Of a stretch of 64,000 nt of DNA, positions 998 to 42,773 are shown piece after piece (positions within the stretch are counted from its first letter, which is position 1; every line of letters begins with the position of its first letter). Origin of the DNA: an uncultured Nitrososphaerota archaeon (GTDB lineage Archaea > Asgardarchaeota > Njordarchaeia > Njordarchaeales > Njordarchaeaceae). The stretch lies in contig CAZFGR010000001.1 of NCBI GenBank assembly GCA_964518475.1, positions 192,001 through 256,000 of the forward strand. The letters run 5' to 3'. The notes under the pieces are model-generated. The model was not told the DNA's origin, did not search any database, and was given only the letters and a program-made list of their open reading frames with translations. The position numbers and the translations under genes were made by a program.

Positions 998-1130
998 GGG
1001 CCGGTAGCTCAGCCCGGGTAGACCGAGCTATCGGGCTCATAGCGTCCGGCTCTTAAACCCACCAGAGTATTACTCTGGTGGGTCTAGAGAAACCGGATGG
1101 TCGCGGGTTCAAATCCCGCCCGGCCCGCCA
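998..1130 (+). tRNA. tRNA-Lys(CTT) with two BHB introns: 1022-1040 (position 22/23) and 1056-1091 (position 37/38)
   Basis: Acceptor stem GGGCCGG/CCGGCCC, encoded CCA, T arm GCGGG-TTCAAAT-CCCGC, anticodon stem TCCGG/CCGGA with CTT at 1052-1054; removing both inserts gives a standard cloverleaf. Confidence 0.92.
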
Positions 1131-13386: not shown

Positions 13387-14177
13387 TTACTTCTTTCTGC
13401 GTCCCGTTCTCCTAGGAGCAATAGCTCCAACTTTTCTGCCAGGTGGTGCATGTCGCGAGACACTCTTGGGCTTGCCAGGGCTCTGATCTCGCCCGCCTCC
13501 AAAGGGGTGGTCACAGGCACTGATGGGACGGGAGCCCCCACGAGTGTGTAGTGGGACTCCCGTCCTTTCATCGCCACTCCTCTGGTTCTTGGCCATTTGT
13601 GTGCTTTTACTCTCCATTTGTGGTAGGCGTTGCCTGCTTTTACTAGTGGTAGTTCGTCTTTTCCTGTTCCGGCTACTATTCCTATTTGTGCTCTGCTGTT
13701 CCAGTTTATCCTTATTATTCTTTTTCCGGGGAGTTCTAGTTCTGTTTGTTCTAGGTGCGCGTGGTGGGCTCTTATTATTGCGTATGTTCCTGCTGCTCTT
13801 GCTATTTTTCCTCCATCGCCTGGTCTTATCTCTATGTTATATACGGGTGTTCCTTCTGGAATCTTTCTTAGTGGTAGCGCGTTCCCTATATCGATTTCCG
13901 CATTCTCTCCGATTTGAATCTCCTTCCCCGTGTATAATCCTTCTGGAGCTATTAGCCAGATTTTTTCTATCACTCCATTGGCTCTTACAAACTTCACTAA
14001 TGCTAGTGGGGCATACCTTCCGGGTTCCTTATACAATTTAAGCACTGTGCCTCTGGCAACATCTTTCATAGCTTCTGGCCAGTCTGGGATTTTTACATCC
14101 GCTACTCTTATTCCTGGAGGAGCTCTGTATACTGATGTTCCTCTCCCTACCCTTTGAGCTCTTATGCGCTTACCCAT
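13387..14177 (-). CDS. rpl2: 50S ribosomal protein uL2, interrupted by a 47-nt BHB intron; exons 14177-13567 and 13519-13387, 247 aa after splicing
   Basis: N-terminal part [13 protein letters not shown]...[10 protein letters not shown] and C-terminal part DHPFGGG...PPGRKVG lie in different frames; splicing at the predicted BHB sites joins them as [15 protein letters not shown]. Confidence 0.93.
13520..13566 (-). other. archaeal-type BHB mRNA intron in rpl2
   Basis: Minus strand GGC-GATG-AA|A-GGACGGGAGTCCCAC-TACACACTC-GTGGGGGCTCCCGTCC-CATC-AG|T-GCC forms a strict hBHBh' motif. Confidence 0.9.
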
Positions 14178-14483: not shown

Positions 14484-15401
14484 ATGTCCTCGCGCAAGAC
14501 TCATCCTCTTCAGTTAGTAATTAATGATAGTTCAACATTTTTGGGCACTGGTATTTCGGTTAAGTTTGAGATAGAGGACGAAAATGTAAAGACCTTTTTC
14601 TATAGTAAGCGAGTTGGCGACATTATAGAAGGGGATTCGATAGGCTTTCCAGGATACAAGTTTCAGATTCGCGGTGGAAGCGATATCGCTGGTTTTCCTC
14701 ACCTAAAAGGGATTCCCGGTACTGGTCTTAAACAGGTTCTTAAAAGTGGCCCCCCGGGTTATAGACCGAGGAAATATAAGGTCGAGAAGAAGACGGGAGG
14801 TTATAAAATCATTAACCTTAAAGGTGTTAAAAAGAAGAAGACTGTTCGCGGAGAGGAGCTTTCAGAATGGACAAGACAAGTAAATATGGTCATTCTAGAG
14901 AGAGGTGGGAGAGCCGTCCATGAGTTAAATGAGAACGAAATGCTTAATGATCACATACTAGATCAATTATGTTTCAGATTAGGAAAAACTGTGCTCAAAT
15001 GGGGTTTAGAAGGCGTTGTAATCATAAGTGATGGCTCAGAGGAAACCTTAGAAAAGGTCCTTGAGAACTATAACATAAGGCAGGACAGTGATTTTTTCAT
15101 TAAACTCGCTAAAAAATTAGGCGTTAGATTAGTAAAACTTGGCAAAGAAAATTTGAAACGCGTGTTTGAGCCACTTAGAAAAGTTAGTAGAAAGCACCCT
15201 CACCCATTGGGTCGCTATATTGCTTGGACTTTATATAACTTCTACAATGCTTTGAAGGAAAATAAGATCGACCTCTCAAAAGAAGATGAAGTCACAGAAG
15301 ATCTAGTTAATAAGATCATGCAAGGCGTTAACGATTGGCTTTCGGGTAAAATGAAAAGAGGCCCCAAATTTAGTTTTAGGATAGTAGAGACTCCTCAGTA
15401 G
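14484..15401 (+). CDS. rps6e: 30S ribosomal protein eS6 with a long C-terminal extension
   Basis: GYKFQIRGGSDIAGFP and KKKTVRG...QVNMVI motifs, followed by about 165 extra aa. Confidence 0.88.
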   Translation: MSSRKTHPLQLVINDSSTFLGTGISVKFEIEDENVKTFFYSKRVGDIIEGDSIGFPGYKFQIRGGSDIAGFPHLKGIPGTGLKQVLKSGPPGYRPRKYKVEKKTGGYKIINLKGVKKKKTVRGEELSEWTRQVNMVILERGGRAVHELNENEMLNDHILDQLCFRLGKTVLKWGLEGVVIISDGSEETLEKVLENYNIRQDSDFFIKLAKKLGVRLVKLGKENLKRVFEPLRKVSRKHPHPLGRYIAWTLYNFYNALKENKIDLSKEDEVTEDLVNKIMQGVNDWLSGKMKRGPKFSFRIVETPQ

Positions 15402-34775: not shown

Positions 34776-34865
34776 GCCGCGGTAGCTCAGTGGTAGAGCG
34801 CGGGACTCGTAAAGCATACTCGAGAAATCCCGAGGTCGCGGGTTCGAATCCCGCCCGCGGCTCCA
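34776..34865 (+). tRNA. tRNA-Thr(CGT) with a 15-nt canonical BHB intron (34812-34826)
   Basis: GCCGCGG/CCGCGGC acceptor stem, encoded CCA, central helix CTCG/CGAG. Confidence 0.93.
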
Positions 34866-40741: not shown

Positions 40742-40840
40742 TGGCGGGCCCGGCGGGACTCGAACCCGCGACCGACGGCTTTCCCCGCCACTAATTACTG
40801 TTAGGAGGCCGCCGCTCTATCCTAGCTGAGCTACGGGCCC
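40742..40840 (-). tRNA. tRNA-Arg(CCT) with a 21-nt canonical intron (40781-40801)
   Basis: GGGCCCG acceptor stem, encoded CCA, anticodon CCT at 40805-40803, central helix CTCC/GGGG. Confidence 0.92.
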
Positions 40841-42623: not shown

Positions 42624-42773
42624 TGGTGGGCCCGGGCGGATTTGAACCGCCGACCTCCCGGTGTCTGAGACTATCTAGACTCCGAAGCTATTTATGACAC
42701 TTGACACTTATTATTTTTATCAGGTGAGGCCTCTTATCAGCCGGGCGCTCTAGCCAGGCTGAGCTACGGGCCC
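42624..42773 (-). tRNA. tRNA-Ile(GAT) with a 72-nt canonical intron (42663-42734)
   Basis: GGGCCCG acceptor stem, ACCA end, anticodon stem CCCGG/CCGGG, central helix CTGA/TCAG. Confidence 0.92.

Follow-up and report, generated by a model that had tools for sequence, protein, structure and literature searches.

A probable tRNA-type intron in the uL2 ribosomal protein mRNA of Njordarchaeales, and related inserts in EF-1alpha and uS12

The window analyzed here is a 64,000-nt stretch of contig CAZFGR010000001.1 from an uncultured archaeon of the Asgard-affiliated Njordarchaeales, and our subject is a 47-nt insert in its gene for ribosomal protein uL2 (rpl2; window positions 13387-14177, minus strand). 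The source genome (G000) is a metagenome-assembled genome (MAG) of 2.33 Mb in 121 contigs, 91% complete and with 5.8% contamination, and it contains only one match to uL2. A table-11 listing of open reading frames (ORFs) gives two overlapping minus-strand frames over the locus, of 284 and 76 amino acids (aa). The longer one begins with MGKRIRAQR and reads through RTRGVAM into unrelated sequence, and the shorter one carries the C-terminal part of uL2, ending in RRKK. The first 203 residues, encoded by exon 1, match the Pfam family Ribosomal_L2_C (1.2e-30, profile positions 2-101 of 126), and upstream of the exon 1 ATG (14177) the sequence shows a Shine-Dalgarno-like GGTGA and a TTTATATT box. 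The insert lies within a uL2 motif, between RGVAMN and A.DHPFGGG, and has a GC content of 66%, compared with 38% for the window. Its excision gives AUG AAU GCC UGU GAC CAC and a uL2 of 247 aa that ends in RRKK. We suggest that the insert is in all likelihood a genuine bulge-helix-bulge (BHB) intron of the mRNA, spliced by the tRNA-splicing endonuclease (EndA) and the ligase RtcB.

The structure of the insert is the first line of evidence. Read on the minus strand, the locus is laid out as GGC GAUG AA-A GGACGGGAGUCCCAC UACACACUC GUGGGGGCUCCCGUCC CAUC AG-U GCC, with hyphens at the predicted cuts (Table 1). Under a strict definition of the hBHBh' motif (outer helix of at least 3 bp, central helix of 4 bp, inner helix of at least 6 bp, G-U pairs permitted), all parts are present: two 3-nt bulges on opposite strands, a 4-bp helix between them, and a helix on either side. 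The arms of the inner stem measure 15 and 16 nt and form 15 bp in total, with one bulged G. The 5' strands GGC and GAUG (13569..13575) sit in exon 1 and are invariant in all four intron variants described below. The fold is strong, with a z-score of -4.1 and none of 200 shuffles as stable. Strict matches numbered 4744 among ~1.1e9 position-by-length combinations of the 2.33-Mb genome (~4e-6 each), and the protein is restored by a single such combination; in a ranking on GC content and fold energy, the uL2 intron was the sole strict match of such strength inside a long ORF. A repeat family or a miniature inverted-repeat transposable element was ruled out, as blastn-short found the intron sequence once in the genome, and so was a group I or II self-splicing or homing-endonuclease intron, as the insert is a plain 47-nt hairpin with neither a ribozyme core nor an ORF. 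An Rfam scan of the window returned four tRNAs and nothing else.

Table 1. Location of the uL2 elements and of other features discussed in the text (window positions unless a contig or locus is named)
Feature	Location	Strand	Description
uL2 exon 1	13567..14177	-	203 codons and the first 2 nt (AA) of the Asn codon
Putative BHB intron, 47 nt	13520..13566	-	A GGACGGGAGUCCCAC UACACACUC GUGGGGGCUCCCGUCC CAUC AG
uL2 exon 2	13387..13519	-	U completing the Asn codon, 43 codons and TAA stop
Outer helix GGC/GCC, 3 bp	13573-13575 with 13516-13518	-	read from the sequence
Central helix GAUG/CAUC, 4 bp	13569-13572 with 13522-13525	-	read from the sequence
5' bulge AAA	13566-13568	-	predicted 5' splice site between 13567 and 13566
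3' bulge AGU	13519-13521	-	predicted cut between 13520 and 13519
Inner stem-loop of the intron	13526..13565	-	9 bp, bulged G, 6 bp; loop of 9 nt
EF-1alpha insert, 31 nt, GC-rich	G000 contig C1 93853-93883; L054, L056	+	between GRFAVRD and MGQLVAVGVV
uS12 insert, 33 nt, in-frame UGA	G000 contig C1 172387-172419; L055, L071	+	between GRSMGD and IPGVKFRVVKV
tRNA gene	998-1127		seemingly more than one intervening sequence
tRNA-Thr(CGU) gene	34776-34862		interrupted
tRNA gene	40745-40840		interrupted
tRNA-Ile(GAU) gene	42627-42773		interrupted
uL2 exon 1 end, biased codons	13569-13814	-	coding strand A 45%, T 9%
Minus-strand tract identical in G000 and G002 (L002)	13475-13576		last 10 nt of exon 1, intron, first ~45 nt of exon 2
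Ribosomal protein S6e gene	14484-15401; L005 576-1499	+ (window)	product of 305-307 aa
Folding GC-rich islands beside long ORFs	G000 contig C1 15329-15411, 87222-87309, 191594-191665, 369684-369732		short, strongly folding
Further folding GC-rich islands	C8 30219-30296; C36 1000-1067; C37 5433-5500; C10 39642-39741; C3 45426-45515		

The positions of the two cuts can be calibrated on the tRNAs of the same window. The rule that we applied is cleavage 3' of the second nucleotide in each bulge, and in a solved endonuclease-RNA complex it is the 2'-OH of the second bulged nucleotide that attacks the next phosphate (PMC12397907). Applied in silico to uL2, the rule yields the AUG AAU GCC junction and a product colinear with intron-less homologues. 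The precursor of tRNA-Thr(CGU) has the anticodon stem CGGGA/UCCCG, the central helix CUCG/CGAG and the bulges UAA and AAA, and that of tRNA-Ile(GAU) has the anticodon stem CCCGG/CCGGG, the central helix CUGA/UCAG and the bulges UAA and ACA. Under the rule, they give 7-nt anticodon loops (CUCGUAA and CUGAUAA) and mature tRNAs of 72 and 75 nt. The rule that restores uL2 is therefore the one required by the tRNAs of the organism. All four tRNA genes in the window are interrupted, with lengths of 87-147 nt, and the anticodon calls of ARAGORN were wrong for three of them.

Relatives of the source organism carry the gene both with and without the insert. The GTDB class comprises only 14 species genomes; among the closest genomes, Candidatus Njordarchaeota MAGs come from Guaymas Basin sediment and one genome belongs to a Promethearchaeati (Asgard) archaeon, and the sequencing runs listed for the stretch, none of them RNA, are hydrothermal-vent and sediment metagenomes. 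G002, with a uL2 96% identical to that of G000, has the same 47-nt intron, G004 (80%) has a 47-nt intron with a different apical stem, and G005 (67%) has a 53-nt intron whose inner stem is nearly all different. There is no uL2 intron in G001 (86%), in G003 (76%), where the product of 247 aa equals the predicted spliced length, or in the other families of the class (G007-G011 and G013; 46-66%). The intron-less uL2 of G001, G003 and families f2 and f3 reads GCAATGAAYGCNGTNGAYCAY, which is exactly the predicted junction. Likewise, exon 2 aligns with residues 202-247 of the intron-less G003 protein at 78% identity (E 1.6e-17). In a 400-genome sample of the phylum, the split-match pattern was found, among the matches listed, only in four g1 genomes.

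Four distinct intron sequences occupy this one site: A (G000 and G002), B (G004), C (G005) and D, a 53-nt variant on L053, which is one of four further intron-bearing contigs from Joint Genome Institute (JGI) metagenomes. All are 47 or 53 nt long, that is, 2 modulo 3, and all keep the GAUG/CAUC helix, with AAA as one bulge and AGU or AAU as the other, while their inner stems diverge and still pair. The outer helix has 3 bp in G000, 2 bp in G004 and 5 bp in L053, and the inner helix 15-17 bp. In the alignment, 90.6% of the cells are paired, versus 34-55% when the partner strand is slid, and 5 of the 9 basal inner pairs have compensatory double changes; none of 500 shuffles matched the paired percentage and 4 of 500 matched the covariation score. 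Because only four distinct sequences are available, we take the covariation as support and not as proof. The variants differ freely in the apical stem and loop, which suggests that constraint acts only on the elements relevant to splicing.

The coding sequence downstream of the insert points in the same direction. Between G000 and G005, which both bear the intron, exon 2 differs at 8 first, 5 second and 23 third codon positions when it is read in the post-splice frame. The excess at third positions indicates that exon 2 is translated in a frame reachable only by removal of the insert, and in that frame exon 2 is under purifying selection.

The host genome also encodes both enzyme types that such splicing would need. 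EndA alpha (contig C1; 215 aa, 101.8 bits) has its N- and C-terminal domains, and visual inspection shows the Tyr, His and Lys motifs. In a second and divergent EndA-like protein (contig C26; 203 aa, 31 bits), the same inspection shows neither the His nor the Lys. An RtcB-type ligase is encoded as well (500 bits). The endonuclease would thus be of the hetero-oligomeric type, with a catalytic alpha and a structural beta subunit, a type that an earlier study reportedly ties to archaeal pre-mRNA splicing (Yoshinari 2006). The cbf5 gene of the G000 genome was inspected as well, and it is uninterrupted, with no intron.

Taken together, these observations suggest the following course. The gene would be transcribed with its 47-nt insert, and GGC GAUG of exon 1 would pair with CAUC at the 3' end of the intron and GCC at the start of exon 2, so that, together with the GC-rich intron hairpin, two 3-nt bulges flank a 4-bp helix. 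The splicing endonuclease (alpha and beta) would then cleave 3' of the second nucleotide in each bulge, and RtcB would ligate the exons, with the intron probably circularized. The resulting mRNA, AUG-AAU-GCC, would encode the 247-aa uL2 with its DHPFGGG loop intact, whereas the unspliced mRNA would be translated into 284 aa that end in a nonsense C-terminus and lack that loop. The predicted spliced junction is GCGAUGAAUGCCUGU, the unspliced one is GCGAUGAAAGGACGG, and a circular 47-mer would join CCCAUCAG to AGGACGGG. As the single-copy uL2 gene is split by an intron of the tRNA type, synthesis of this essential protein would almost certainly need the tRNA-splicing enzymes. Much of this was anticipated in the initial annotation, which had described a 47-nt GC-rich insert of hBHBh' geometry splitting the uL2 motif, with cleavage behind the second bulge nucleotide regenerating the Asn codon and a 247-aa frame: every element of the geometry was found where it had been placed, and the junction is the same as in the intron-less congeners. 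An alignment of rpl2 from relatives, which it had proposed, shows the intron in some, the exact junction in others, and covariation of the stem. The dependence of uL2 synthesis on the tRNA-splicing machinery, also put forward there, is well, if indirectly, supported by the junction in intron-less congeners, the covariation, the divergence at third codon positions, the calibration on tRNAs, and the genes for EndA alpha and beta and RtcB.

Several points weigh against this interpretation. The splicing is predicted from DNA, and the spliced junction, the circular intron and the peptide are predictions. The minimum-energy register of RNAfold is shifted by one and replaces the 3-nt bulges with internal loops of 1x1 and 2x2; this comes from the way the energy model penalizes bulges, and the BHB register is possible in all four variants. 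The G004 intron has an outer helix of just 2 bp and an A.C mismatch within its inner stem. The MAG, being 91% complete and 5.8% contaminated, may conceivably lack a second, intron-less rpl2 that was left unassembled. Moreover, the uL2 tree does not resolve the genus, and it therefore gives neither the number nor the order of intron gains and losses.

Two observations on uL2 alleles stand beside these results. G000 and G002 share ~80% nucleotide identity in exon 1, and the tract from the last 10 nt of exon 1 through the intron to the first ~45 nt of exon 2 is 100% identical in the two, which may reflect either constraint on the splice site or a recent recombination tract. In addition, none of 82 codons at the end of exon 1 ends in T, compared with 20 of 121 at its start; T-ending exon 1 codons number 1 in 203 in G004, and in G002 they occur throughout the gene. 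This pattern looks like a mosaic of alleles that differ in synonymous-site bias. In another family of the phylum, the genome G111 contains, besides its own copy, a second full-length and intron-less uL2 (contig C155, 82-819) that is 66% identical to the uL2 of Njordarchaeales and is probably bin contamination from a relative of the Njordarchaeales class. As for the gene neighborhood, rpl2 is located outside the usual rpl3-rpl4-rpl23-rpl2-rps19 cluster. The gene for ribosomal protein S6e, whose Pfam S6e domain is confined to residues 22-148 and is followed by a long C-terminal extension, immediately precedes rpl2 in G003, where both are on one strand, and is divergent from it in G000, a difference in orientation that points to a local inversion.

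The uL2 intron is not alone in this genome. Inserts of the same geometry, obeying the same cut rule and likewise consisting of GC-rich perfect hairpins with covarying variants, interrupt the genes for elongation factor EF-1alpha (31 nt) and ribosomal protein uS12 (33-34 nt), although their outer helices are weaker (1-2 bp) than that of uL2. In the EF-1alpha insert, the central helix is CGGG/CCCG and the bulges are AUA and AAA; G002 shares this insert, G001 has a form with compensatory changes in the stem, and families f2, f3 and f4 lack it. The uS12 insert has a GGGG/CCCC central helix and the bulges ACA and AAA. It is identical in G002, G001 has a 33-nt variant with a different, compensated stem, and G006, in which the uL2 gene was not found, has a 34-nt variant; the insert is absent in G003, G004, G005 and G008. 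Thus, G000 and G002 have all three introns, G001 has those of EF-1alpha and uS12 but not that of uL2, G004 and G005 have that of uL2 but not that of uS12, and G003 has neither the uL2 nor the uS12 intron, so that the distribution of the three is mosaic across the species of the genus. In G003 (L058, contig C39), the EF-1alpha frame enters AT-rich sequence after GRFAIRD, at the intron position of the relatives, and exon 2, recognizable as MGQ.VAVG, was not found near GRFAIRD. This break may mean that the contig is chimeric, that the intervening sequence is longer in G003 or that the gene is split.

On a bolder reading, Njordarchaeales may harbor a small, dynamic population of endonuclease-spliced introns in core translation mRNAs (at least those of uL2, EF-1alpha and uS12), gained, lost and perhaps exchanged by interspecies recombination. 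We put this forward tentatively, as an idea that falls somewhat short of being the probable one. The tract of 100% identity between G000 and G002, covering the intron and proximal exon 2 beside an exon 1 of ~80% identity, would then be a trace of such exchange.

Our genome-wide scans do not amount to a complete census of introns in coding sequences. A strict BHB scan combined with a test for ORF restoration gave 231 hits, versus 215-234 in shifted controls, that is, no enrichment, and the restoration criterion discards even the uL2 intron, since translation can read through it in an open frame. A filter on codon-usage log-odds missed the positive control, a first filter for GC islands returned zero candidates, and relaxed BHB scans gave mostly chance matches. 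Ranking on GC content and hairpin strength picked out uL2 and, in hindsight, EF-1alpha and uS12 also. The list in which the latter two appeared contains further GC-rich islands with strong folds (Table 1), which may be tRNAs, small RNAs (sRNAs) or additional mRNA introns.

It would be tempting to infer a regulatory function for the uL2 intron. Splicing by EndA and RtcB might be rate-limiting or conditional, and would in that case couple uL2 and assembly of the large subunit to the tRNA-splicing capacity of the cell. The intron adjoins the codons of the functionally critical DHP loop, so unspliced mRNA would give no active uL2; similar introns occur in two further translation genes; and a role as negative regulator has been proposed for the cbf5 intron too (PMC2738675). 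The perfect match of G000 and G002 over the intron and ~45 nt at the start of exon 2 could be read in the same way, but a recent recombination tract explains it equally well. However, the uL2 intron is missing from the congeners G001 and G003, and the uS12 one from G003, G004 and G005, which implies that any such regulation is dispensable within the genus. Furthermore, conservation among the variants does not extend to the apical stem and loop, and no recognizable sRNA or binding motif was found in the intron. We therefore consider regulation unlikely, and the link between tRNA splicing and ribosome biogenesis that the initial annotation had raised finds no support, given the intron-less congeners, the mosaic presence and the lack of a recognizable regulatory element. 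Most likely, the intron is a tolerated, vertically inherited element that is occasionally lost or exchanged, and not a regulator.

A gene of this form might also be expressed with no RNA splicing at all, by translational hopping over the 47-nt hairpin in the manner of T4 gene 60, or it might be a decaying pseudogene or a tolerated frameshift. A stable hairpin of ~50 nt within a coding sequence does recall the gene 60 coding gap, and the unspliced frame is open for 284 codons. Translational hopping, however, requires matching take-off and landing codons. Here the Asn codon exists only as AA-U across the junction, there is no AUG or AAA landing codon before GCC, and neither a matching codon pair nor a stop following AUG or AAA was found. 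The precise BHB geometry, with its invariant bulges and 4-bp helix, would play no part in hopping. A pseudogene is contradicted by the fact that this is the only rpl2, by the purifying selection on exon 2, and by the retention of the arrangement in four species with 67-96% protein identity. Expression without splicing thus seems very improbable.

That the insert is an artefact of assembly, binning or sequencing, or a strain-level insertion in part of the population, is a possibility we give almost no weight, for although the genome is a MAG of 121 contigs with 5.8% contamination and run X1 has no contig over 13452-13670, four species-level MAGs of separate projects and four JGI contigs have an identical or covarying insert at this site, the independent run X2 yields a 151-nt unitig that matches 13449-13599 with 0 differences, and no joined, intron-less form was seen in four DNA runs. 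As for a second rpl2, a concern raised in the initial annotation, none was found in the 91%-complete genome.

If the uL2 insert is a spliced BHB intron, as we believe, its closest known relative is the intron of cbf5 in Crenarchaeota (Desulfurococcales and Sulfolobales; Watanabe 2002, Yoshinari 2006, Yokobori 2009, PMC2738675). Both are short BHB-type introns without an ORF in a protein-coding gene (16-44 nt in cbf5, 47-53 nt in uL2), both interrupt codons at a functionally critical residue, and both have hosts for which a hetero-oligomeric (alpha-beta) endonuclease is known or, in our case, predicted. Both are also patchily distributed, with secondary losses precise to the junction. They differ in that the uL2 intron resides in a ribosomal protein gene of Njordarchaeales whereas cbf5 encodes a pseudouridine synthase in Crenarchaeota, and in that the uL2 motif is strict hBHBh' while the cbf5 motifs are described as relaxed. 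Moreover, splicing of cbf5 is proven by experiment, whereas that of uL2 is predicted from sequence.

Pre-tRNA introns at position 37/38, of which the window holds two examples, resemble the uL2 intron in having the 5' strand of the central helix in the 5' exon, two 3-nt bulges and the same cut, with EndA and RtcB as the presumptive enzymes in uL2. In uL2, however, the outer helix is coding sequence rather than an anticodon stem, there is no tRNA body, and the product is an mRNA whose frame would depend on nucleotide-exact ligation. The HVO_1309 mRNA of Haloferax volcanii (PMC7714728, PMC10485636) is likewise an mRNA substrate of the archaeal tRNA-splicing endonuclease via a BHB, but in another gene and lineage, and with an enzyme of the alpha2 type. 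A 2023 review names cbf5 and HVO_1309 as the two archaeal genes spliced via this endonuclease and expects more (PMC10485636). HAC1 and XBP1 offer a more distant parallel, also drawn in the initial annotation: there too, a short frame-changing intron bounded by stem-loops is removed independently of the spliceosome and a tRNA ligase joins the exons (RtcB in metazoans). The analogy holds for the ligation step, with its RtcB-type ligase, but not for the nuclease, since HAC1 and XBP1 are cut by IRE1 at paired 7-nt loops in a proven stress-regulated switch and not, as predicted for uL2, by the tRNA endonuclease at a BHB. Full-text literature searches returned no report of such introns in genes for ribosomal proteins or elongation factors or in Njordarchaeales, and mRNAs are not covered in a 2026 preprint on the tRNA introns of Asgard archaea.

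To our knowledge, the case for tRNA endonuclease splicing of archaeal mRNAs has for more than 20 years stood essentially on cbf5 in Crenarchaeota and one haloarchaeal mRNA. What is new here is a strict BHB intron, very probably genuine, in a universally essential, single-copy ribosomal protein gene of an Asgard-affiliated lineage, along with sibling introns in EF-1alpha and uS12, and with four covarying variants and precise losses that can be compared as a series. Such a series makes archaeal mRNA introns testable with respect to their origin, their mobility, their loss via spliced-RNA intermediates and their expression cost. There are consequences for annotation as well: gene callers will give a frameshifted uL2 of 284 aa or two fragments, and marker-gene phylogenies of Njordarchaeales, whose placement is disputed, rely on uL2, uS12 and EF-1alpha. 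The uL2 case says nothing direct about spliceosomal introns. However, if Njordarchaeales do maintain a dynamic population of such introns, an Asgard-affiliated lineage would routinely need RNA splicing for essential protein genes, and BHB introns would act as mobile elements in mRNAs besides tRNAs.

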